Source of the DNA: an uncultured candidatus Porisulfidus sp.
Lineage (GTDB): Bacteria; Pseudomonadota; Gammaproteobacteria; Poriferisulfidales; Oxydemutatoraceae
DNA: 64,000 bases
Direction of reading: 5' to 3'
Assembly (NCBI GenBank): GCA_965215125.1
Contig: OZ244052.1
Coordinates: 1,792,001-1,856,000 of the forward strand
Shown here: positions 525-38,067 of the stretch, in pieces
Numbering within the stretch: position 1 is the first letter of the stretch
Layout of the letters: every line of letters starts with the position of its first letter
Program-made: the position numbers and the translations under genes
Notes under the pieces: generated by a model
Seen by the model: only the letters and a program-made list of their open reading frames with translations
What the model was told of the DNA's origin: nothing
Database searches by the model: none

Positions 525-589
525 TGGAAAGGCTTTACATTTTGTAAGCATTTTAGGGTTCTGCACAATGTCAAGCCTGCCCTCTACAG
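525..589. repeat. Partial copy of modular intergenic repeat family
   Basis: TGGAAAGGCTTTACATTTTG...GGGTTCTGCACAATGTCA also at ~48945-48993 and ~56015-56065; ends in CTGCCCCTAC (REP-like half-site). Confidence 0.75.
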
Positions 590-607
590 GAGGAAAATAA
601 TTTGTTA

Positions 608-976
608 CTACGGTTTGACGACGATGGCTTGAGCGACCGCATAGCTTGCTTCGTCGCTGATGCTCACTAGGATGTTTTGTTCGGTTGTTTGTTTCTCGCT
701 TTGATGTAGTGTGGCATAAGGTTTGCCGGATCGGTTGCGTTTAATCAGTATTGATTTAGGGTACAGATTTTCGGCAAAACCGCTACCGATAGCTTTGCTA
801 ACCGCCTCTTTGGCGGCAAACTGACGGGCAAGAAAAGCCGCCTTGTCTTTGCGCTCGCTATAGTCGGTATATTCTTGCGGGTGAAGGATGCGTTTGGGAA
901 ATCGCTCCGGATATTTTCCCAGTATACGCTTGATTCTATTAATGCTAACGATGTCTATACCGATGCCGTAAATCAT
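608..976 (-). CDS. acpS: Holo-ACP synthase
   Basis: [27 protein letters not shown] motifs; follows pdxJ. Confidence 0.95.
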
Positions 977-1716
977 TTTGACGACTCGTCGGCTTGTGTT
1001 ATGGTTCTTTTGAATGTTCGCACCGCTTCTTTAAGGCCGACAAAAACCGCATCGGCAACAATGGCATGACCGATATTTAATTCTTGGATTTGTGAGATCG
1101 CAGCGATGGCCCCTACATTATCTAATGTTAGTCCGTGTCCGGCATTGACTTGCAATCCGAGTTCTGCTCCTTGACGAGCAGCCTCTACGATACGCCGATG
1201 TGCTTGTTGTTGTATGTCGCCCGTTGTCCCGGCATATTCGCCGGTATGCAGTTCAACGATTTCAGCTCCGCACTGCACCGCCAACTCTAAAACGGACAAA
1301 TCGGGTTCTACAAAGAGTGAAACGGCAATACCTGCGGCACGCAGTGTCTCGCATACACTTGCAATACGCTTGCGATGCTTACGAACATCCAATCCGCCTT
1401 CGGTGGTAAGTTCTTCGCGTCTTTCAGGCACCAAGCAGCAATAGTCGGGCTTGACCCGAAGTGCAATCCCAAGCATCTCGGCCGTCGCTGCCATTTCCAA
1501 GTTTAGGTGCGTGCCGACACATTCACGAGCGAGATAGACATCGGCATCCTGGATATGTCGGCGGTCTTCGCGCAGATGAATCGTAATCCCGTCGGCTCCT
1601 CCTGCTTCGGCTTCGGCAACGGCGCGGCGAAAATCCGGGTAGGGGGTGTAGCGGGCTTGGCGCAAGTTTGCGACATGGTCTATATTAACGCCCAAAGTGG
1701 TTCGAAAATTTTTCAT
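973..1716 (-). CDS. pdxJ: Pyridoxine 5'-phosphate synthase
   Basis: [43 protein letters not shown]. Confidence 0.97.
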
Positions 1717-2666
1717 AGCCTGTTTGTTTGGGATTGATTTCTTAGCATTGCGATATCATCCTCGGCTTGTTCCTGAAGCATACGTTTACCGTGTTGCTTG
1801 CTTTGAGTCTTAACATTCAATTTCAAATAGGTCGGTAAGCTAAGCGTATTCTCGATCGCCTTTCGGGCGGCGGTTCCTATCGCCTTAAGCCGACTGCCTT
1901 GCTTGCCTATTACGATGGCGCGCTGATTGTCTTTCAGAACCCATAAAAAGGCCTCTATACGCAACCGGTTTTCCAGTATTTCAACCGCTGAAACTTCTAC
2001 ATCCATCGTATAGGGAATTTCCTCGTGCAGATAGCGCATGACTTGTTCGTAGACTAGTTCCTGAACGATTACCTTAGGTCTTTGATGGCTGTTCGGGTCT
2101 CCTTTGAAGATAAAATCGGCTTGCGGAAGCAGTGTCTTAACCTCGGCTTTGAGCTTGCCGAAATCTTTATCCCTACGCGCCGAGAGCGGCACGATTGCAG
2201 AGAAACCATGCCCGCGAATTTTATCTATAGTAGTTAGAAGCGATTGTTTCTCTTTGAGTAAGTCCGTTTTGTTAAGTACTAAAACACAGGGTGAGACACC
2301 CGATTGTATAATCTTCAATGCCGAATCGTCGGTCTGTGTCCACATTCTACTATCAACAACCAGCATCACCAGATCGACACCCAGCATAGCTGCCTTGGCA
2401 TTGCGATTTAGCATACGATTCCAGGGATGATGTATGCTCTCGTTCAACCCCGGTGAATCTATAAAGATTATTTGGGCATCGCCTTCGGTCAATACGCCTT
2501 GTATGTTATGACGGGTGGTTTGCGCCTTATGCGTCACCGCAGCCCAATGATGCCCGATCAGGCGGTTGAACAGGGTTGATTTCCCTACGTTCGGTCTGCC
2601 GCACAAAGCGACAAAACCGCAACGGCGTGCGGTCGGTATATTCGGTGTAGCTTGAGTCTCTATCAT
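1713..2666 (-). CDS. era: GTPase Era
   Basis: [23 protein letters not shown]-like [10 protein letters not shown]; in rnc-era operon. Confidence 0.95.
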
Positions 2667-4278: not shown

Positions 4279-4517
4279 AAATAAGCTGTTTGCAGTCTTT
4301 GCGACAATCTACCGTATCAATAATTGGCTATAAGATATACTAAGACGACAAAAACTGCGATAAAAGAGACTGTAGCAATTAAGTTAGTTATAGCAGGTTT
4401 CATATATTTCACTCCTTAAATATTTTTGCTAATTATAGCATAGTTATCATAAAAAAAGAGGGATGAGTTTGTAGATTATCGCATGTCATTCTGCTTTTTT
4501 CTCTATATGCTCTCGAT

Positions 4518-5456
4518 TTATGATTCCCAATCGTACCCCGAGAAAAAGTCGTATTGCTCTATCAACGATGCAACCTTTTGTTTTTGATCCGATGTCCAGT
4601 CAAAATTAAATCGCCTTCTATTAGGTTTTTCGTCAACGCAAGAAGAACAGTCATCTAGATAATCGGGAGATACGGACACTTGTGCAAACTGGCATAGCTT
4701 AGTCAACTGTAAACTCGGATCTGCAACCATTTCTTCATGTTTAGATACGAATATATCTCGAGGAGCTACTTGCTCGGCAAGTTTTATATTCTCTTTGGAC
4801 AATTTCTCAACAAACGATATAGCCTTTGTGGTTATTGGCTTTTGGGTGGAGTCTTTGTATTTAGTCGTTCTGCTTGTTTTATTGGCGATCATATCGTAAG
4901 GATTGCGAACCGTTAAAATGAATTTCAAGCGAATATCCCTTTCCTCAAGTCTTTTTTTGAAGGTCGTAAATTGACGCTTATCGGATAAACATTTTGTGGT
5001 TTGGCTAGAGCATTTGATTCCTAAAACTTTTAGTGTCTCAAAACGACCTTGATATTGATTAGGTACTAATATGTATCGCCCCTGTCTTGTACCTTCAGGA
5101 AAAAGAATAGTATTATTATCTTTTCTCTCTTTTTTTATTAGCCATCGTATATGATCCACCATTAAAATTACATTAAATATTTTATTTAAGTCTGCCGAGT
5201 ATAGACCATTTATTTTATTTATTCCATTTATATCGTTTATATCCAATGCAACCGGTTCACCGAAAAGAATGGCAGGTTGATCGGCGACGACCATGCCGGG
5301 ATGCGCGGTTAGTAAATAGCCGAGTAGTGATGACCCTGAACCGGAAAAACCTATGGTCAATAACATCACTCGTACGTCTTCAAGAGATTTCTCCCATAAA
5401 TCTTTTTTCGGTTGTATAAGTTCTAAAAGCTCTTTTTTATACGAGGAGCGTGCCAT
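4518..5456 (-). CDS. Sulfotransferase-family protein (paralog 1)
   Basis: IGFSGSGSSLLGYLLTAHP (5'-PSB-like), FILTVRNPYD (3'-PB-like), HEEMVADP...L..LCQF. Confidence 0.7.
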   Translation of the reverse strand: MARSSYKKELLELIQPKKDLWEKSLEDVRVMLLTIGFSGSGSSLLGYLLTAHPGMVVADQPAILFGEPVALDINDINGINKINGLYSADLNKIFNVILMVDHIRWLIKKERKDNNTILFPEGTRQGRYILVPNQYQGRFETLKVLGIKCSSQTTKCLSDKRQFTTFKKRLEERDIRLKFILTVRNPYDMIANKTSRTTKYKDSTQKPITTKAISFVEKLSKENIKLAEQVAPRDIFVSKHEEMVADPSLQLTKLCQFAQVSVSPDYLDDCSSCVDEKPNRRRFNFDWTSDQKQKVASLIEQYDFFSGYDWES

Positions 5457-5484: not shown

Positions 5485-6444
5485 TTACGATTCCCAATCG
5501 TATCCCGAGAAAAAGTCGTATTGTTCTATCAACGATGCAACCTTTTCTTTTTGTTCCGATGTCCAATCAAATTCAAATCGTCTTTTATTAGGTTTTTCAT
5601 CAACACAAGAAGCACAGCTGTCTAGATAATCGGGAGATGCCGGCACTTGGGCAATTTCGCATATCTTGGTCAATTGCAGTTTCGGATCTTCGACCATTGC
5701 CTCATGTTTGGATACAAACACATCTTGGGAGTCTACTTGTGTAAGAATTTTTATATTATTTTCAGATAACTGAGCAATATACGATATACTCATGTTTAAT
5801 AATTTTTCTGAATGAAAATCTTTTTTTTCGCGTTTCTTGTAGAACATAGTTTTTTTTGCTCTGAGACTAATCATATCATAAGGGTTGCGGATAGTTAAAA
5901 TGAATTTCAGGTAAACTCCCTTTTCCTCAAGCCTTTCTTTGAAGGTTTTTAATACATCATCTCTAGATAAACATCTCACGTTATTCCGGGAATGTTTGAC
6001 TCCTATGACTTCCAGTGTTTCAAAACGACCTTGATATTGATCGGGCATTAATAGATAACGTTTTGTTTTATTAAATCCGGTTAAGAAAGTAGCCTTATTT
6101 TCTCTGGGAAAGTTTCTCTTTTTTGCTACTAACCATCGCACATAATCTAAACCCAAAGCGACATTAAATATCTTGTTTAAGGCTGCCGAGTATAAACAAT
6201 CTTCACTTTCCAGTTCTATTCCGTTTATATTATTCATGTTTTTCTCAAGCAGGCTTCCTTTATCAAAAACAAAGGGTTCATCGGCAACAACCATGCGGGG
6301 ATGTGCCGTTAGTAAATAACCGGCCAACGATGACCCGGAACCGGGAAAACCTATAGTTAGCAACATTACTCGTATATCCTTAAGAGATTTCTCCCATAAA
6401 TCCTTTTTTGGTCGTATAAGTTCTAAAAGAGTTTGTTTATTCAT
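5485..6444 (-). CDS. Sulfotransferase-family protein (paralog 2)
   Basis: Same motifs (IGFPGSGSSLAGYLLTAHP, FILTIRNPYD); identical C-terminus KVASLIEQYDFFSGYDWES. Confidence 0.7.
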   Translation of the reverse strand: MNKQTLLELIRPKKDLWEKSLKDIRVMLLTIGFPGSGSSLAGYLLTAHPRMVVADEPFVFDKGSLLEKNMNNINGIELESEDCLYSAALNKIFNVALGLDYVRWLVAKKRNFPRENKATFLTGFNKTKRYLLMPDQYQGRFETLEVIGVKHSRNNVRCLSRDDVLKTFKERLEEKGVYLKFILTIRNPYDMISLRAKKTMFYKKREKKDFHSEKLLNMSISYIAQLSENNIKILTQVDSQDVFVSKHEAMVEDPKLQLTKICEIAQVPASPDYLDSCASCVDEKPNKRRFEFDWTSEQKEKVASLIEQYDFFSGYDWES

Positions 6445-6674
6445 CGTATGGCCTTAAGCAGAAAATAACGAGGCTTAATGATATAAATGATTGTAAGTAA
6501 TGTATTTTTGTTGACTGTTATCTACCTGCTCCAATGCGACGAAAGTGCGCTGTGTGAAGTGCATAGTATAACATTCTTTTCCCATTTGTATGTGACATCG
6601 TTCTTTTGAAAAGACTGGAAATTAGACACAAGCCCTTTGCGTGTCCTGATTGGATAAACGACAATATATCAGTA

Positions 6675-30478: not shown

Positions 30479-31327
30479 ATGCCATACAACGACAAGACAT
30501 CAAATAACCATTTAATAGCGGCATCTAATGTTTTGCCGTCGGCATTAAAGGCATTAGAGAAATGGATTGCCGACGGCTGTTTCGAGCAATACGAATCACC
30601 CGAGTATATATTGTCCGGCCCTAGAAATCGCCCGCATAACCGTCTATATGAATTTATACTACCGGCAGTAGATTATCGGGTCGTCATGAAAGTGACGCAT
30701 ATACACAAACAATACAGCTGGATACGCCGCCTACGAGCATTATTCAGATACTATCGTCGGCGGGATGCCAACTACAGAGCGTTTCAATGTTGTCGACATG
30801 CTTATCAACAGGGTCTCGCCGCCCCTAAACCATTGGCTTATTGGCGCAAACGCGAATCCTTCACTCAAACTAAAAGTTATTTTTTATATCGCTACATTGA
30901 GGGTAGTGTGTCGTTTCTTGAAATTTCCGAGAAATTGAGAAGAGAGAGTGAAGATAAATGGCAACAACAAAGGGATTTGTTGAAAACAAAGATTATAGAT
31001 GCCGTTAAGTGCCTTCATGACTCGGGTATCAGACACGGTGATATGGTTGCGCATAATATATTGATATCCATCCCGAATACAGACTTGTCAAAAGCAAAAG
31101 TTTGTTTTATGGATTACGATAGGAGCACTTTGTCCGGATTGCGAAGAGACACTTTTCTTAAACGATTTTTTGATTTAAGAGACCTACGCAAATTATATAT
31201 AGACGGTGCTTTACCTTACGATTTGCTCGGCATCTATTTGGGAGATGATTATCATCCGCTGTGGCGCATCGTCCTCGCTTTTTGGCGATTGGGGAAGCTT
31301 GATACCTTTACAAATAAAGTAATGTAG
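30479..31327 (+). CDS. LPS kinase (Kdo/WaaP-like) family protein
   Basis: VVMK, APKPLAY, LHDSGIRHGDMVAHNIL, FMDYD: kinase-fold HxDxxxxN and DxD motifs. Confidence 0.7.
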   Translation: MPYNDKTSNNHLIAASNVLPSALKALEKWIADGCFEQYESPEYILSGPRNRPHNRLYEFILPAVDYRVVMKVTHIHKQYSWIRRLRALFRYYRRRDANYRAFQCCRHAYQQGLAAPKPLAYWRKRESFTQTKSYFLYRYIEGSVSFLEISEKLRRESEDKWQQQRDLLKTKIIDAVKCLHDSGIRHGDMVAHNILISIPNTDLSKAKVCFMDYDRSTLSGLRRDTFLKRFFDLRDLRKLYIDGALPYDLLGIYLGDDYHPLWRIVLAFWRLGKLDTFTNKVM

Positions 31328-31393
31328 GGCTGTTTTTGATTAGTCCGGGATATAATATCTTCAATTTGTTTTTACCCGATAGGATTATCCAGT

Positions 31394-32256
31394 ATGCCAA
31401 GGTACAATCATTTAATAGCGGCGAATATCACCTCGCTACAGCAAGCAGAAGCGTTAAGGAATTGGATAAAAAACCGCGAGTTCGAGAAATACGAATCAAC
31501 CGAATATGCGTTTAGTCATAAGGGAGGGCGGCCGAAAAATAAACTTTATAAATTCCTGCTTGCCGATATTAACCGTCAGGTTATTATGAAAGTTTCGTAT
31601 ATAAATAAACGCTATAAGTGGACGCGTCAACTTGAATTGATATTAAAGCATTATTTACAGGATGCCAACTACAAGGCTTTTCGTGGTTGCGAGAAAGCCT
31701 ATTGCCATAATCTGGCAGCACCCGAACCGTTTGCTTATTGGAGAAAGCGCGACAGTTTGACACAGGTTAAGAGTTATTTTTATACCAATATATAGAGGCA
31801 GACGCTTATGTAGAAGAGATATACGGGAAATTAGTAAGGGCAAGCGGTATCGATTCAAAGCAAAAAAGGGCATTGATAAGGCAAAAAATCATCAATGCGC
31901 TTAAATCCCTTCATCGGCAAGGCATACGACACGGAGATGTAGTGCTACATAATATGGTAATGTCTAGCGAAAACACAGATGATTTATCAAGCGCAAGAGT
32001 TTATTTTATAGATTACGACAGAGCTTCTTTTGCTAAAATCAAATACCCGGCTTTTATTAGAAGATTCTTTGATCTGAAGGATTTCCGCAAAATGACAATA
32101 GACGATGTCTCACATTACGATATGCTCAGGCTTTATTTAGGAAGCGAGTACCACGCTTGGTGGAATATAGTATTAGCTTTTTGGCGGTGGGGAGGATTTA
32201 ACCTTTTCCAATGGAGTAATCCCGATACCCGTCAAATTAAAAACCACATGAGATAA
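31394..32256 (+). pseudogene. Frameshifted paralog of the LPS-kinase-like gene (ORFs 31394-31795 + 31873-32256)
   Basis: Adding one T to the T5 run at 31777-31781 (T6 in the paralog) gives KSYFLYQYIE...LHRQGIRHGDVVLHN...FIDYD as one frame. Confidence 0.75.
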
Positions 32257-32282
32257 AAAAACCGCCGCACTAAGGCGGCGGT
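32255..32282 (-). terminator. Intrinsic terminator of porin A
   Basis: Hairpin ACCGCCGC-N6-GCGGCGGT followed on the minus strand by a T-run. Confidence 0.8.
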
Positions 32283-32347
32283 CTCGTGCTATCTCTAGCA
32301 CTTGGTCATTCAATCAAATTTCATCCGTGAAATTTGTGTACGATTTT

Positions 32348-33670
32348 TTAGTCGAACCAGTGCACTATACCGACGGCGAACATTTCTATATTTTCGCCTT
32401 CACCAACACCACCGCTATTAATACCGAAGTCATAACCGGCATTGTCTTCGTTGCTAACCTCGGAATAGGTGGCACGCAATTCGGTACCTGCCGGCATCGT
32501 GTAGAACACACCGAGATTAATTGCGTCTGCATCGGTGTCTCGCTCGGCTGCTGCCGTACAAACATCGGCATCACAATCCCACTCGTCTGCATCCATATAC
32601 GAGAAGCGGAAGTCTATACCGTTGCCGAAAGCATGCTTGCCGGAAATCATATAGGCATCGCGTTCCACACCTGTCCAGATAGGAGCATTTGTGACATCAA
32701 TAGCGGGTGAACCCCCACCAATGCCGATAGTACAACTTGCATTGTACTCCAGTTCTTCATACATCGCTGCAATCCAAGTGGATTGACCGTTGCCCCAATC
32801 AAACTTATAGCGACCGGCGAGGCGATAACCTTCGTCGTCCGAGTCGGTACAACCCAAGTCTGCTCCAATATTAACTGCACTGACATCTTCGTGTTGCTCG
32901 TAAGCGGCAGCAACCCAAATTTGGTTGTTGCCCATATTGTGTTGATAGGCAACACCGGTGGACATGATGCGGGGATCGACATCTGCGCCGTTGAGATTGC
33001 TATCAACACCTTGAGCTTCAATCCCGTCTCCGGAGGTAATAGCAAAGCGAAACTGGAAGCCGTCTCGGGTTTGACTTGCCATCGCCGAAGTATTGGGCCA
33101 TACATATTGTACGATACCCTCTTGACGACGGTTAAACGCTAATGTGCCAAATGCCTTTGAAAAATCACTATCTTTATCAAAGCTACCGTTGTAGAACAAT
33201 GAACTCAGCCCACCACCGGAGCGCGGTGTGTTACCACCGATATTGCCCATAATGCTGGTGTGCGAATCGGCACCGGCATCGTAGAAAGGATCTACCCACT
33301 GGGCAACGATCTCGTTATACGGAAGCAACCATTGACCGACCATGATTTCACCCATTGTTTCATGGCGAAGGCTGAGTTTGGAGTTACGGTTACACCAGTT
33401 AGTGTATTCGTTAAAGCGTCCCCAATAGGTAAATTGTTCGCAACGAAAACCGACTTGCAAACCTTCAATCCCGGTATCCATATGCGCCATGAAACCGATA
33501 TTTGCAGCATTGTTGCTCAAGCGATCGAAATCGCGAGCACCGTTGTCAACGAACTCATACGACCAGTTTTGCCAGCCGTATATGTTAATATTCTCAGCTT
33601 GAGCATTGGCAAACGGTACTGCTGCCATCGCAAAACCTACAAGAGAGATTATCAGTTTGTTACTCTTAAG
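32348..33670 (-). CDS. Gram-negative porin A, apparently the silent cassette (lacks own ATG/RBS)
   Basis: Signal peptide LKSNKLIISLVGFAMAAVPFANA, NIYG N-terminus, RNSKLSL..GEIMVGQW, C-terminal GIVHWFD; only an RBS-less GTG (33703) upstream. Confidence 0.8.
   Translation of the reverse strand, partial: LKSNKLIISLVGFAMAAVPFANAQAENINIYGWQNWSYEFVDNGARDFDRLSNNAANIGFMAHMDTGIEGLQVGFRCEQFTYWGRFNEYTNWCNRNSKLSLRHETMGEIMVGQWLLPYNEIVAQWVDPFYDAGADSHTSIMGNIGGNTPRSGGGLSSLFYNGSFDKDSDFSKAFGTLAFNRRQEGIVQYVWPNTSAMASQTRDGFQFRFAITSGDGIEAQGVDSNLNGADVDPRIMSTGVAYQHNMGNNQIWVAAAYEQHEDVSAVNIGADLGCTDSDDEGYRLAGRYKFDWGNGQSTWIAAMYEELEYNASCTIGIGGGSPAIDVTNAPIWTGVERDAYMISGKHAFGNGIDFRFSYMDADEWDCDADVCTAAAERDTDADAINLGVFYTMPAGTELRATYSEVSNEDNAGYDFGINSGGVGEGENIEMFAVGIVHWFD
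33654..33670 (-). repeat. Left 17-bp inverted repeat (putative crossover site)
   Basis: AGTTTGTTACTCTTAAG is the exact reverse complement of 34995-35011. Confidence 0.9.
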
Positions 33671-33838
33671 CCTTTTAATATGTGGCAAGGTTGAATAAGA
33701 CACTGTGTGCCGCTGACAGAGGCATTATCTTTTTCTTACAAGGCAATAACATAAGTATAATAAGAAAGCATTTGCCTAAGGCGATTTATACAAATGAGGT
33801 TGTTTAGCCTTAAGTTTACTAATAAAAAGGACGATTAT

Positions 33839-34813
33839 ATGAGAGAAAAAACTATAGAGATTATGGAAAGATCCGGGCATACCGTCTCGGAGATGATAGA
33901 CCGCTATATTAAAGAAGTCTCAATCATTCTCCCCAACACCGTAAAAAATCAAGGCAGTCATCTGAAGTGGTGGCAACAAGAAATAGGACATTATCATTTG
34001 AGCAGTGTGAGACCTGCGGTGTTGATTGAATACCGAAAAAAATTATTATGCGAGGTATCCTGCCGAGGGAAACCTCGTTCTACGGCGACGGTTAATCGTT
34101 ATTTTTCTACATTGGGTCGTGTTTTTGCCGTTGCGATAAAAGAATGGGAATGGATGGAAAGTTCGCCGTTGCAGAATATCTCCAAGCTGGAAGAGCCTGT
34201 CGGGCGCACTCGTTTTTTATCCGAGCAAGAAATCAGCCGCTTGTTAGATGCGTGTGCCTCTCTGAACCATCAAGATTTATATACTGCGGTTGTGTTGGCG
34301 TTGAGCACTTGCGCTCGGCGTATGGAGATTATGTCTCTGCATTGGCAACAGGTAGACCTTGAGCTTGGCGTTATCCATTTGCATAAAACTAAAAACAAAA
34401 CCAGCCGCGCTGTTCCTTTGCAAGGTTATGCGCTTGAGTTAATTCGTGCAAGGTATCAGCCGTCGGTCGCTCCGTCGGCATTGGTATTTCCCAGCCGCTT
34501 AAAACCTAATCAGCCGGTTAGTCTCAGAGCATCTTGGGAGAAGGCGTTGTCGTTATCGGGCATAAAAGATTTTCGTTGGCATGACTTAAGGCATACCGGT
34601 GCCTCATACCTCGCAATGCAAGGTGCCTCTTTGGCAGAACTATCCGAAATACTAGGACATAAAACATTGCAAATGGTCAAGCGTTATGCACATCTTTCCT
34701 TACCACATACGATTCAAATCGTCGCCAGAATGAATCAAACCCTTTTTGAAAATTCGGTTAAAAGTAACAAATGGCTTAAAGACCAGCAAAATTCTTATAA
34801 ATCTAGCAAATAA
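33839..34813 (+). CDS. Tyrosine recombinase (integrase/Rci-like), putative invertase
   Basis: Complete catalytic set: TCARRMEI (R), KTKN (K), WHDLRH (H-x-x-R), LGH (H), VKRYAH (Y); SAM-like TVNRY..L..VF..A..EW; AAGGA RBS before ATG 33839. Confidence 0.9.
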   Translation: MREKTIEIMERSGHTVSEMIDRYIKEVSIILPNTVKNQGSHLKWWQQEIGHYHLSSVRPAVLIEYRKKLLCEVSCRGKPRSTATVNRYFSTLGRVFAVAIKEWEWMESSPLQNISKLEEPVGRTRFLSEQEISRLLDACASLNHQDLYTAVVLALSTCARRMEIMSLHWQQVDLELGVIHLHKTKNKTSRAVPLQGYALELIRARYQPSVAPSALVFPSRLKPNQPVSLRASWEKALSLSGIKDFRWHDLRHTGASYLAMQGASLAELSEILGHKTLQMVKRYAHLSLPHTIQIVARMNQTLFENSVKSNKWLKDQQNSYKSSK

Positions 34814-34862
34814 AATGTGTTGCTAAAAAACAACACTATTTGCCAAAATAGTTATTTTTTTA

Positions 34863-34891
34863 TTGAATTATTGATTAGACAAAACTATAAT
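34863..34891 (+). promoter_or_regulatory. Sigma70-type promoter inside the invertible segment, pointing at the porin start
   Basis: TTGAAT (34863-34868), 17-bp spacer, TATAAT (34886-34891); RBS AAAGGAG at 34974-34980. Confidence 0.7.
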
Positions 34892-34988
34892 CTATCCAAA
34901 TTTAAGTAAATCTAGTGTTGTTTATATGGTACTAACTAAGTCATTAGCTATTCTGTTCACAACACATTAACATAAAGGAGAAAATTTT

Positions 34989-36587
34989 ATGAAACTTAAG
35001 AGTAACAAACTTATGCTTTTTCTGGTCGGACTGGCGATGGTAGCAATGCCGTTTACTAATGCTTCCGCCGATGCCCATGGCGAGGCTTTTAACATCTACG
35101 GCTGGCAAAACTATTCGTACGAGTATGTTGAAGCAGATCGGACCTTTGAGAACAATAACTACTTCATTCCTGGTGCAGAAGACGAAAGAGAGTTTGATCG
35201 CATTCAAGGTAATGCGGCAAATATCGGCTTCATGGCGCACATGGATACCGGTATCCCGGGTTTGCAAGTCGGTTTGCGTTGTGAGCAATTTACATTCCAC
35301 AACCGATTTACTTCGTCGGGTTGGTGTAATCGTAACTCTAAAATCAGTCTTCGTCATGATACGATGGGTGAGATTATGCTCGGTCAGTGGCTATTACCGT
35401 ATAACGAGATCGTTGCCCAGTGGGTAGACCCCTTCTATGACGCAGGTGCCGATTCGCATACCAGCATTATGGGTAACATTGGTTTCGGAGGTGTCTTCTA
35501 CAATGGTGGTACTTTCCCGTTGGGTACAGGCACGGACTTTAGTTATGAAGGGCTATACGCGCTGAGCTTCAATCGTCGCCAAGAAGAAATCGTCCAGTAT
35601 GTCTGGCCGAACACTTCGGCAATGGCAAGTCAAACCCGAGACGGCTTCCAGTTCCGCTTTGCGATGACGACAGGTGTCAATGACGATGCGCACCTTGATC
35701 GTGTGAATGCATTCACAGGTGTTGATGGTCCGGATGGTTATAACGATCCTTATTGGAGTATCGGAGGAACGGATGGCTTCAGAGACTCTCCGTACACATT
35801 AGATCCGCGTATTTGGTCAACGGGTGTGTCTTATCAGCATAACATGGGTAGCAACCAAATTTGGGTTGCGCTTGCCTATGAAAAGCACGAAGACATCACC
35901 GCACTGGAACTCTCTCGTCCTATTGACTTCCCAGCTGAATCGTATGGTGCCGCCACTTTCTGCGAAGACTCGGATGACGATGCATACCGCATTGCCGGTC
36001 GTTACAAACACGATTGGGGCAACGGTCAATCTACTTGGATTGCGGCCATGTTTGAACAATTAGAGTATGATGCGAGCAATTGTCAAATTCGTAGAGAGTC
36101 CGATGGGACTTTCCACGATCATCGCACACTTTGGGACGATGTAGAACGGGATTCCTTCATGATTTCCGGCAAACATACCTTCGGCAACGGATTTGATGTC
36201 CGCTTCTCGTATATGGATGCCGATGAATTGGAGTGTCCCGGTGGTGTATGCGGTGAACCAGGATTTTATGGTGAGTATAGTGGTTTTGGCCAGGTAACGC
36301 CAGGTACGCGCAACAGTCCAGCTAATGGTAATACTCAGTTTCAAGCTCGCCAAGCTAACAATACCTTTTCCGACAATAATACCGACGCCCAGGCTTATAA
36401 CGTTGGCGTGTTCTACACAATGCCGGCAGGTACCGAGCTACGGCTAACCTATTCAAAAGTAGACAACGAAGATAATGCAGGCTACGACTTCGGTATCGGT
36501 AGCACCAACCTATGGAATGTAACCGATGACAATCAAGATGAAGATGTAGAGATGTTCGCCATCGGTATAGTCCACTGGTTCGACTAA
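34989..36587 (+). CDS. Gram-negative porin B (cassette currently joined to promoter/RBS/ATG)
   Basis: MKLKSNKLMLFLVGLAMVAMPFTNA signal peptide; colinear with porin A but with longer loops; ends GIVHWFD. Confidence 0.85.
   Translation: MKLKSNKLMLFLVGLAMVAMPFTNASADAHGEAFNIYGWQNYSYEYVEADRTFENNNYFIPGAEDEREFDRIQGNAANIGFMAHMDTGIPGLQVGLRCEQFTFHNRFTSSGWCNRNSKISLRHDTMGEIMLGQWLLPYNEIVAQWVDPFYDAGADSHTSIMGNIGFGGVFYNGGTFPLGTGTDFSYEGLYALSFNRRQEEIVQYVWPNTSAMASQTRDGFQFRFAMTTGVNDDAHLDRVNAFTGVDGPDGYNDPYWSIGGTDGFRDSPYTLDPRIWSTGVSYQHNMGSNQIWVALAYEKHEDITALELSRPIDFPAESYGAATFCEDSDDDAYRIAGRYKHDWGNGQSTWIAAMFEQLEYDASNCQIRRESDGTFHDHRTLWDDVERDSFMISGKHTFGNGFDVRFSYMDADELECPGGVCGEPGFYGEYSGFGQVTPGTRNSPANGNTQFQARQANNTFSDNNTDAQAYNVGVFYTMPAGTELRLTYSKVDNEDNAGYDFGIGSTNLWNVTDDNQDEDVEMFAIGIVHWFD
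34995..35011 (+). repeat. Right 17-bp inverted repeat (putative crossover site)
   Basis: CTTAAGAGTAACAAACT, codons 3-8 of porin B. Confidence 0.9.
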
Positions 36588-36626
36588 ACCGTCCAATTAA
36601 GAAAAACATACAGACACGGATGTCTC

Positions 36627-36670
36627 GGGAGCTTCCCTCCAATCGGAGGGAAGCCCTCCACTAATTTTTT
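36627..36670 (+). terminator. Intrinsic terminator of porin B
   Basis: Hairpin GCTTCCCTCC-AATC-GGAGGGAAGC with a T-run about 11 nt downstream. Confidence 0.65.
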
Positions 36671-36833
36671 CGACCTCTAGTTTATCGAAAAACCCGCTTT
36701 TCAGGTAGCCTTAAAAGTGGGTTAATGTCACTAGACTACCAGAACTAAACCGGTATTAACGAAAAAACAAATTGAAACAATTAACCAAATAAACGAATCC
36801 TCAATGCATACGCCTTGATAGTACTCTACCGCA

Positions 36834-37088
36834 TCATAAAAACTTTATCATCAATCCGACACCGGCAAGGATTATTCCTACAGCCCCATACATCTGTCTC
36901 GTTAGTCTAGTCTCTAGGGTTGCCATTTTTTCTATTACTCTAGCCTCTAGGTTTGCTATCTCTGCTTTTATGTATTCCTTCGTAGCTACTTCCTTTGAAC
37001 TCGCAACATCGGCAACCGCCTCCTTTGCTTCAGCATCGGATACGCCGTTTATCTTTCTCAATGTGTTATACAAGGCAATCTCGGTCAT
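36834..37088 (-). CDS. Small coiled-coil protein with C-terminal TM (DUF1640/CCDC90-like)
   Basis: MTEIALYNTLRKI..VSD.EAKEAVADVASSKEVATK, LETRL, hydrophobic tail. Confidence 0.65.
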   Translation of the reverse strand: MTEIALYNTLRKINGVSDAEAKEAVADVASSKEVATKEYIKAEIANLEARVIEKMATLETRLTRQMYGAVGIILAGVGLMIKFL

Positions 37089-37201
37089 CTCTATTTACTA
37101 CTTTTATTGTTTATCGTAAAACTCTAAATTTATCACATAATTGATAAGGTGGGACATTTATCAAACTACCCTAATCCCGCAATAGGGTATGAAAATCTGT
37201 C

Positions 37202-37237
37202 AGCACCAAAGTATTTCTCAAAGGCCCTCTCCAATGA
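37202..37237 (+). pseudogene. Relic 3' end STKVFLKGPLQ*
   Basis: Near-identical to the 3' end of the minus-strand relic ending at 37832. Confidence 0.5.
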
Positions 37238-37383
37238 ATAATTATGGGGCTGTTGAAAAAGTGCCGTGATTGGTAATTTTCGGTAGGTAGGTCCATCCAA
37301 AAGTTTTTAGGGACTTCTTGTGCGGTTTTGACCGCCTGTTGGGTGCCTTGGCAGATAATCTTGTCTTTACAGGAACCTTATCA

Positions 37384-37641
37384 TCAAAGATACTTTATAA
37401 TTCCGACAATCGCCAAACCAATACCTATCAGCTTCCAAGTCATACGCGTCTCTAAATTCGCTATATCAGCTTTGGTCGCCATATCTTTGATATCTGCTTT
37501 CGTTTCTGCTTTTAGTTCTATTATATCTGCCTTAGTTGCTACTTCCTTTGAACTCGCAACATCGGCAACGGCTTCCTTTGCCTCGTCATCGGACACTTCC
37601 GGTATCTTTCTTAATGTGTTGTATAACGCGATTTCTGACAT
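37384..37641 (-). CDS. Small coiled-coil protein with C-terminal TM (DUF1640/CCDC90-like)
   Basis: Paralog of 36834-37088 with repeated TKADI units; AGGAG RBS. Confidence 0.65.
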   Translation of the reverse strand: MSEIALYNTLRKIPEVSDDEAKEAVADVASSKEVATKADIIELKAETKADIKDMATKADIANLETRMTWKLIGIGLAIVGIIKYL

Positions 37642-37831
37642 CTTTATCTCCTATATTTATAATACCTGTTATTATAGCAATTATAACTGAGAAATTGTAA
37701 CTGTAGAGAGGACACATTTGGTGATTTCTCGTAGGCAGTCTAGGTCATCTAAAAGTTTTTAATGGAAAACAATTCCACATAGCCAGCCACCATGTAGTAA
37801 TGTCGGGCTGTTGAAAAAACGCTATGATCAT

Positions 37832-38067
37832 TCATTGGAGAGGACCTTCGAGAAATACTTTGGCGCGTATCATCAAAGCCGGGCGAGTAGTATAAATTCG
37901 TCTTGGCGAGTTAACTTATTCGTCATATCCCCGCCTATCCGTATAGGTTCCTCTCACACGAAATATACTACTCTCTTCTACTAAAGGAAATGTTTCACCT
38001 CCTACCGATACGCTAGAACCCGATATTACATGCGGCGTTTCGATAGCTCCGTCAATATTCATCCAGT
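37832..38067 (-). pseudogene. IS-truncated 3' relic of a probable surface-protein gene ending IRAKVFLEGPLQ*
   Basis: Single frame WMNIDGA...FRVRGTYTDRRGYDE*VNS...IRAKVFLEGPLQ* with one internal TAA (37916-37918); starts at the IS boundary. Confidence 0.6.

Follow-up and report, generated by a model that had tools for sequence, protein, structure and literature searches.

Inversion-based surface variation has so far been known mainly from pathogens and gut commensals. In the Salmonella Hin/fljBA system, the recombinase gene and an outward promoter lie inside the invertible segment; Hin belongs to the serine invertases and works with a Fis enhancer, the promoter serves one side, a repressor gives the either/or outcome, and the sites lie outside the coding sequence. 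In the Campylobacter fetus sap locus, the promoter is carried by an invertible element between opposed homologous surface-protein genes that are expressed in an either/or manner, and inversion makes use of RecA and of extended, conserved 5' homology rather than a dedicated recombinase. In the shufflon of plasmid R64, Rci recombines short asymmetric sites that are located within coding sequence, and the vsa genes of Mycoplasma pulmonis have their site within the 5' coding region and share the start. Here we analyzed a 64,000-nucleotide (nt) stretch, hereafter the window, of the 2.22-Mb single-contig genome of an uncultured candidatus Porisulfidus sp. (G000), in which two divergent porin genes, A and B, flank a tyrosine recombinase gene (32348-36587; all positions are window coordinates). 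The piece between the two porins is a real invertible element with its crossover inside a 17-bp inverted repeat, and the locus very probably constitutes a recombinase-driven either/or porin switch.

Moses et al. are said to have described, in 1995, a single promoter-bearing invertible piece in Dichelobacter nodosus omp1A-D, with crossover sites at the gene 5' ends. This omp1 locus comprises four linked outer-membrane protein genes, for which the available portion of one article suggests site-specific inversion (PMC4196234), and its sites are listed among the target sites of Din-family serine invertases in the accessible part of another (PMC3241671). As far as these excerpts go, it resembles the locus studied here in that several variant major outer-membrane protein genes of a gammaproteobacterium are proposed to be subject to inversion; it differs in that the segment studied here encodes its own tyrosine recombinase and has 17-bp sites of another, unrelated kind. 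In the Mycoplasma vpma, vsp, and vsa loci, the Xer-like tyrosine recombinases Xer1, Mbr, and HvsR relocate a single promoter, and in M. agalactiae, the sites of vpma are found in the 5' untranslated region (-1 to -72), each gene has its own start, and disruption of xer1 locks the phase (PMC2268961, in the sections available). Within the limits of that text, these loci share with ours one promoter, an Xer-like tyrosine recombinase of the same locus, and several surface-protein genes. However, the products of M. agalactiae vpma, M. bovis vsp, and M. pulmonis vsa are lipoproteins of wall-less bacteria and the recombinase lies beside the invertible piece, whereas here the cargo is a Gram-negative general-diffusion porin, present in two cassettes (three in one relative, G003), and the recombinase lies inside the segment. 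Tyrosine recombinases also invert DNA to vary surface proteins such as those of the SusC/SusD family in Bacteroides fragilis, according to the accessible parts of three articles (PMC4747536, PMC5729914, and PMC11852207).

The likeness to the B. fragilis enzymes and to Rci is one of description. Rci exchanges the C-terminal parts of a pilus adhesin whose promoter stays put, whereas the element described here moves the 5' end and the promoter and leaves the gene bodies in place. It also differs from C. fetus sap in that a dedicated tyrosine recombinase accompanies the 17-bp crossover site and the start codon moves with the promoter. Like Salmonella Hin, it holds a recombinase gene and an outward promoter together in the segment, but Hin is of the serine type and its promoter is one-sided. 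The switching logic is known, and it is the combination that differs: a recombinase within the segment, a traveling start codon, a crossover in the signal-peptide codons, a general porin, a minimal set of two cassettes, and an uncultured marine symbiont lineage. An earlier reading of the window, made from the sequence alone (the sequence-only reading), had not recognized this exact architecture. Our literature search likewise found no description of porin inversion in this lineage, although supplementary files, which might hold annotations at the level of metagenome-assembled genomes, were not covered; close analogues, as outlined above, do exist.

We consider it highly likely that the locus is a site-specific inversion switch of the "movable expression site" type that alternates between porin A and porin B. 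In this model, the recombinase gene is expressed within the segment whichever way the segment lies, and its product would synapse both 17-bp sites; recombination between them would invert the 1,358-bp segment. The promoter, the ribosome binding site (RBS), and the Met-Lys codons would thereby become fused in frame either to porin B, as in the assembled state, or to porin A, and the unlinked porin gene would be left without promoter, RBS, and ATG. A cell lineage would in this way alternate between two outer-membrane surfaces that have the same barrel and constriction loop and differ in large insertions of the long loops. The switch had already been proposed by the sequence-only reading. Inverted junctions, both orientations, and related genomes now speak for it, while catalysis by the recombinase, exclusivity, and purpose keep the standing of inferences.

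Five public runs contain the stretch, and four of them were examined as Logan contigs, which derive from a 31-mer graph. Three (X1, X2, and X3) are samples of one study, possibly including the source of the window, and the fourth (X5) belongs to a second study. In each of X1, X2, and X3, one contig spanned exactly 33654-35011, and the adjacent contigs started or ended at the repeat edges. Because a 17-bp repeat alone cannot break a 31-mer graph, these breaks mean that two continuations exist. Indeed, native 43-nt junction contigs (e.g., X1 record 4, 33641-33683) were present, and beside them, in all three runs, we found flipped junctions, recognizable as contigs with 13 loose letters that match the flank of the other arm (two such ends per run, six in total). 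Loose ends at 35011 corresponded to the porin A codons that follow the site and those at 33654 to the reverse complement of porin B codons, while those at 33670 were the reverse complement of the ATG-AAA unit and those at 34995 the silent sequence upstream of porin A. The flipped joins consequently read start unit, site, and porin A on one side and silent upstream sequence, site, and porin B on the other. In X5, a 1,503-nt contig (depth, 166.8) connected 35426-34995, read in reverse, to 33671-34741, 17 letters at the joint agreed with either side, and the flipped arrangement is the main assembled form in this run. The segment occurs naturally in both orientations, and the crossover falls within the 17-mer. 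This is in good agreement with the sequence-only reading, which had predicted junctions switching exactly at the 17-mer: they were found in three of the four runs, and the flipped form was the main contig in the fourth.

The repeat itself is perfect, and each copy is read in frame (L-K-S-N-K-L) in its porin open reading frame (ORF). We rejected the idea that the 17-mer is statistically exceptional, since the 0.17 matches expected from shuffles of the window represent the wrong null for paralogs. The two porin paralogs have exact runs of 32, 32, 22, 20, and 18 bp in common, in addition to two other 17-mers, and because these shared runs include longer ones, the 17-mer is not beyond chance when compared to paralog conservation. 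Its distinction is that the observed crossover maps there, and not its sequence. The dyad symmetry of its core, judged by eye, is weak and falls partly in the downstream signal-peptide codons. No further copies were found in the window at up to three mismatches or in the 2.22-Mb genome at up to two, so that one finding which the sequence-only reading had named as refuting the switch, a 17-mer equally conserved in porin paralogs unlinked to a recombinase, did not turn up. A near-copy of the core (V-K-S-N-K-W) was noticed in the 3' tail of the recombinase gene; it points the same way as the right site and opposite to the left one. The recombinase tail that holds it is found only in the genus of the window, and the motif is not conserved in two other species of that genus (G001 and G003); none of the contigs of the four runs showed a joint at 34758-34771. 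The near-copy may be a relic of an older site.

The ORF between the porins matched Phage_integrase (PF00589) at 1.5e-32, with 113 bits against a cut-off of 27.1. In an alignment with five relatives, R160, K185, H248, R251, H274, and Y283 were invariant in all six aligned proteins; we take these residues to be the catalytic set of tyrosine recombinases (R..K..HxxR..H/W..Y). The same alignment placed the start at ATG 33839, the upstream in-frame ATG 33794 being unsupported by the relatives. Of the NCBIfam models, XerA (79.6 bits versus a cut-off of 220), XerC (65.6 versus 335), and XerD (57.8 versus 330) came closest, so that the protein is Xer-like in sequence only and is not classed as a XerC, XerD, or XerA equivalog. 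Two other types were rejected. FimB/FimE-type tyrosine DNA invertase models scored below their cut-offs (NF007371, 33.6 bits versus 222; NF007370, 23.4 versus 221), and a Din-family serine invertase does not apply, since the sole recombinase is of the tyrosine type and no other candidate ORF of at least 50 amino acids (aa) was found in 31000-38000. The position of the gene and its co-conservation with the sites suggest that the encoded recombinase catalyzes the flip.

We then looked at the expression signals. The strongest sigma-70-like match in 32000-37000 was the TTGAAT-17-TATAAT promoter, and AAAGGAG and ATG-AAA stand immediately 5' of the right repeat. The good promoter, the RBS, and the ATG-AAA of the locus all lie inside the segment and are linked to porin B as assembled. 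In contrast to porin B, the only start of porin A is GTG 33703, which lacks a Shine-Dalgarno sequence and is not preceded by any promoter-like match (minus-strand scan of 32000-37000). Each porin has a separate terminator-like hairpin. The promoter hexamers, the RBS, and ATG-AAA are invariant in four species of the genus (G000, G001, G003, and G004), in which the palindrome between the recombinase stop codon and the porin promoter is also nearly invariant; it might act as an insulator or a terminator. The block GTATAATA, which contains the TATAAT at 33756-33761, is invariant in G000, G001, and G003, and this TATAAT could be the -10 element of the recombinase promoter. None of the public runs containing the stretch is on record as RNA. 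From these signals, exclusive expression of one porin at a time would be predicted. On all of these features, the sequence-only reading was borne out. The coordinates and reading frames of the repeat in both signal peptides were reproduced, as was, by promoter scan and sequence, the restriction of promoter, AAAGGAG, and ATG-AAA to porin B; the RBS-less GTG, intact 451-aa frame, and own terminator (hairpin at 32258-32285) of porin A were confirmed; and the claim of a tyrosine recombinase with an intact R-K-H-R-H-Y set agrees with the PF00589 match and the conserved residues.

To what extent the arrangement is conserved was assessed in 41 related genomes, G000 included. Recombinase homologs (E <= 1e-20) were present in six of them, namely, in four of the five genomes of the window's genus and in two of the five genomes of a second genus, and in none of the 22 genomes of the other three families, while porin homologs occurred in 32. 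The order porin (-), recombinase (+), start-bearing porin (+) was found again in G001 and G003 (same genus) and in G007 (second genus), whose recombinase is 58% identical to that of the window, and the left porin lacks a start in all three. In G000, G001, G003, and G004, the expression unit is 90 to 100% identical up to the core and then continues into one of two signal-peptide classes: the class linked to the start is of the B type in G000 and G001 and of the A type in G003 and G004, and the silent sites are reciprocal. G003 has a third start-less cassette and three identical 17-mers, that is, a three-cassette system. In G004, collinearity with G000 extends over the lipopolysaccharide (LPS) kinase flank and the porin A ortholog and ends at the core, the breakpoint beyond which the recombinase-promoter segment is inverted. 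The first 79 codons of the G004 recombinase are missing, as are a second site and a second cassette; by sequence, G004 is a frozen flipped state. The opposite orientation that had been predicted for related genomes was hence encountered, as the other signal-peptide class in G003 and G004 and as an inverted segment in G004. A second recombinase paralog of G004 (L036, G004:C2:1082000-1094000, 5638-6552, minus strand; 61% identical) lies away from porins, among ORFs that resemble DNA methyltransferases in their N-terminal motifs, as judged by eye.

Several observations weigh against the proposed switch, and two rival explanations draw on them. The public data consist of contigs, not reads; they carry no per-cell information and do not give the proportion of each orientation. 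X2 and X3 look mixed, holding 12 and 17 extra contigs, respectively, that are only 90 to 95% alike and may be overlaid paralogs or other strains, and X5 has a different organism code and contains 0.84 of the words. The orientations could therefore belong to coexisting strains, and inversion might be real but rare, each strain being fixed in one state rather than engaged in ongoing phase switching; the relatives, too, were assembled in one state each. We regard this explanation as improbable. Both junction types occur in each of three runs (X1 to X3), on a 1,358-nt segment without any variant letter, and the recombinase, the sites, and the start-less cassette are intact across two genera, which is hard to explain without continued use. 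Moreover, G001 carries the same C-to-T change in both sites, as expected if the sites recombine with each other.

Other points concern the mechanism. The link between recombinase and inversion is drawn from position and co-conservation, and the silence of the unlinked porin is read solely from its missing start signals. Homologous recombination probably also shapes the locus, given that the paralogs share exact repeats longer than the site (32 bp). The porin body of G004 is 97% identical to the right-hand body of G001 yet follows the other signal-peptide class, and the A body of G000 corresponds to the right cassette of G003 and the B body to the left one. A single-inversion history for G000, G001, G003, and G004 was rejected, since bodies, signal-peptide classes, and flanks disagree; the cassette orders that a simple flip leaves unexplained suggest further exchanges at other conserved tracts, probably homologous ones. 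In G017 (L038, G017:C28:1-9000), the start-type porin (588-1892, plus strand) is not adjacent to the recombinase (4397-5329, plus strand), an arrangement that, judging from the gene order, flips of a contiguous recombinase-promoter unit cannot reach. In this draft genome of the second genus, a second, convergent porin separates the two genes, and no porin follows the recombinase. Finally, the wider recombinase family is not linked to porins: porin homologs were found at only 2 of 159 genome and metagenome loci, both in close kin (G003 and G004).

One may thus ask whether the flip is due to homologous recombination between the inverted paralogs, or to another enzyme, the tyrosine recombinase being a passenger such as a remnant integrase. 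The many conserved tracts common to the paralogs, including the two exact 32-mers, the cassette mosaics of the relatives, which require exchanges away from the core, and the lack of porin linkage in the wider family would all fit. So would the IS110-family transposase genes that we noticed a few kilobases to the right of the porin locus in G003 (L034, 12304-13278; matching DEDD_Tnp_IS110 and Transposase_20) and in G001 (L033, 12455-13003; recognized by its similar N terminus only); no IS110 gene, however, was found within 7 kb of the locus in G000. We nevertheless judge this explanation very unlikely. The crossover takes place in 17 bp of identity although longer identities are available, the recombinase has a full catalytic set and is still found within the segment in a second genus, at 58% identity, and in G004, where alone the recombinase is truncated, the second site and the second cassette are gone as well. 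A site-specific switch operated by the encoded recombinase, with homologous exchange acting in addition, remains our preferred reading.

Beyond the lineage, recombinase homologs at 33 to 53% identity are widespread (Legionella, Chlamydiae, alphaproteobacteria, and methanotrophs). The metagenome scan yielded no relative above 52% identity and no further examples or orientations. A general "invertase clade" flanked by inverted paralogs was rejected: among 79 genome loci, 69 had both flanks, and a single one of these (G003) had paralogs on both sides.

We next characterized the two porins and what varies between them. Porin A matched Porin_4 (PF13609) at 4.5e-19, and porin B, for which no Pfam match was obtained at 0.01, is 55% identical to porin A over its full length, with 21% gaps that occur in blocks. 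A structure model of porin A, built from a 20-sequence alignment (mean pLDDT, 63.5; pTM, 0.65), matched the 16-strand porins Omp32, PorB, chitoporin, and OmpF/OmpC (E down to 1e-15; TMt up to 0.75), while a sequence-level search of the PDB returned no relatives at E values up to 1. Profile match and model together place the two proteins in the general diffusion porin family (Porin_4, predicted 16-strand barrel). When the eight cassettes of the genus are compared, insertions and low identity are concentrated in residues 43-46, 144-174, 216-233, 262-271, 316-334, 362-377, and 413-427. The short turns 66-70, 104-106, 247-248, 294-295, 348-351, and 392-395, as well as residues 115-142, are 93 to 100% conserved and free of insertions. 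Mapped on the model, the pattern of cassette variation is one of variable long loops on one barrel face and a conserved constriction loop, and by analogy with solved porins, the variable face would be the extracellular one.

Cassettes of the same porin family were also found in a sister family of the host. In G019 (L120), G022 (L206-L209), and G024 (L119), an identical 12-bp site is present in the signal-peptide codons of the cassettes. G022 (G022:C1:195000-264000) harbors ten cassettes, arranged as five convergent pairs over approximately 70 kb among housekeeping genes; two of the ten have an RBS and an ATG, the other eight are start-less, and some of the silent upstream sequences recur at different cassettes. 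The recombinase of the window has no homolog in this family at E <= 1e-20. A Pfam scan of adjacent ORFs revealed, in both G022 and G024, an IS110/DEDD transposase gene beside a start-bearing site; the second start-bearing site of G022 had only a CbbQ ATPase beside it, and three ORFs of G019 gave no match. The IS110/Piv-like gene is the only candidate recombinase seen in the sister family. We tentatively suggest that porin expression-site switching could be an ancient trait shared across the whole lineage of sponge-symbiont and SUP05-related sulfur oxidizers, for which different recombinases were recruited convergently, a proposal that we hold more doubtful than otherwise. If true, uncultured symbionts would have programmed surface variation, possibly as a main determinant of phage and host interactions. 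The larger cassette arrays of this family merit a separate study.

In the locus described here, the cargo is a general-diffusion porin, the main gate of the outer membrane and a typical phage receptor, and the benefit of switching may be escape from phage or host recognition or a change in permeability. The host belongs to an uncultured lineage of marine sulfur oxidizers, close relatives of which have been described as symbionts of sponges. One article counts Porisulfidus among the known sponge symbionts (PMC12988363), and another used it as the outgroup to SUP05 (PMC9123188). Assemblies of such genomes show only one of the two (or more) porin states. The unit is compact and self-contained, with recombinase, promoter, RBS, start codon, and two 17-bp sites in 1.36 kb, which makes it easily tested, and it may serve as a two-state genetic device. 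Its features are listed in Table 1.

Table 1. Features of the porin locus in window coordinates
Feature	Position	Strand	Size or structure	Remarks
Terminator-like hairpin and T-run after porin A	32258-32285	-	11-pair stem, 7 GC pairs	
Porin A cassette	32348-33703	-	451 aa	Open frame from RBS-less GTG; body without repeat, 32348-33653
Left 17-bp inverted repeat (crossover site)	33654-33670	-	17 bp	In porin A signal-peptide codons
Invertible segment including both repeats	33654-35011		1,358 bp	Contig of exactly that span in X1, X2, and X3
TATAAT upstream of recombinase gene	33756-33761	+		Putative -10
Xer-like tyrosine recombinase	33839-34813	+	324 aa	From ATG 33839
Near-copy of repeat core in recombinase 3' tail	34758-34771	+		13/14 match
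Palindromic hairpin between recombinase stop and porin promoter	34817-34836		8-pair stem	
Porin promoter TTGAAT-17-TATAAT	34863-34891	+		10/12 match
RBS AAAGGAG, spacer, and ATG-AAA	34974-34994	+		AAAGGAG, 34974-34980; ATG-AAA, 34989-34994
Porin B	34989-36587	+	532 aa	Linked to expression unit in assembled orientation
Right 17-bp repeat	34995-35011	+	17 bp	In porin B signal-peptide codons
Terminator-like hairpin after porin B	36645-36659	+		

On the left, the porin locus is flanked by LPS kinase genes, and this flank is conserved in G000, G001, and G004. In the window, one gene of the Kdo/WaaP family lies at 30479-31327, and a second copy is split into two ORFs (31394-31795 and 31873-32256), probably representing a frameshifted or decaying paralog. 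Downstream of porin B, two paralogous ORFs of 84 to 85 aa with similar N termini (36834-37088 and 37384-37641, minus strand) gave no Pfam match. The public contigs vary near these ORFs, with joints from 36860 to 36952 and 36956 (skips of 91 and 95 nt) and, in X2, a divergent contig at a depth of 388, which suggests a repeated or variable small-gene family.

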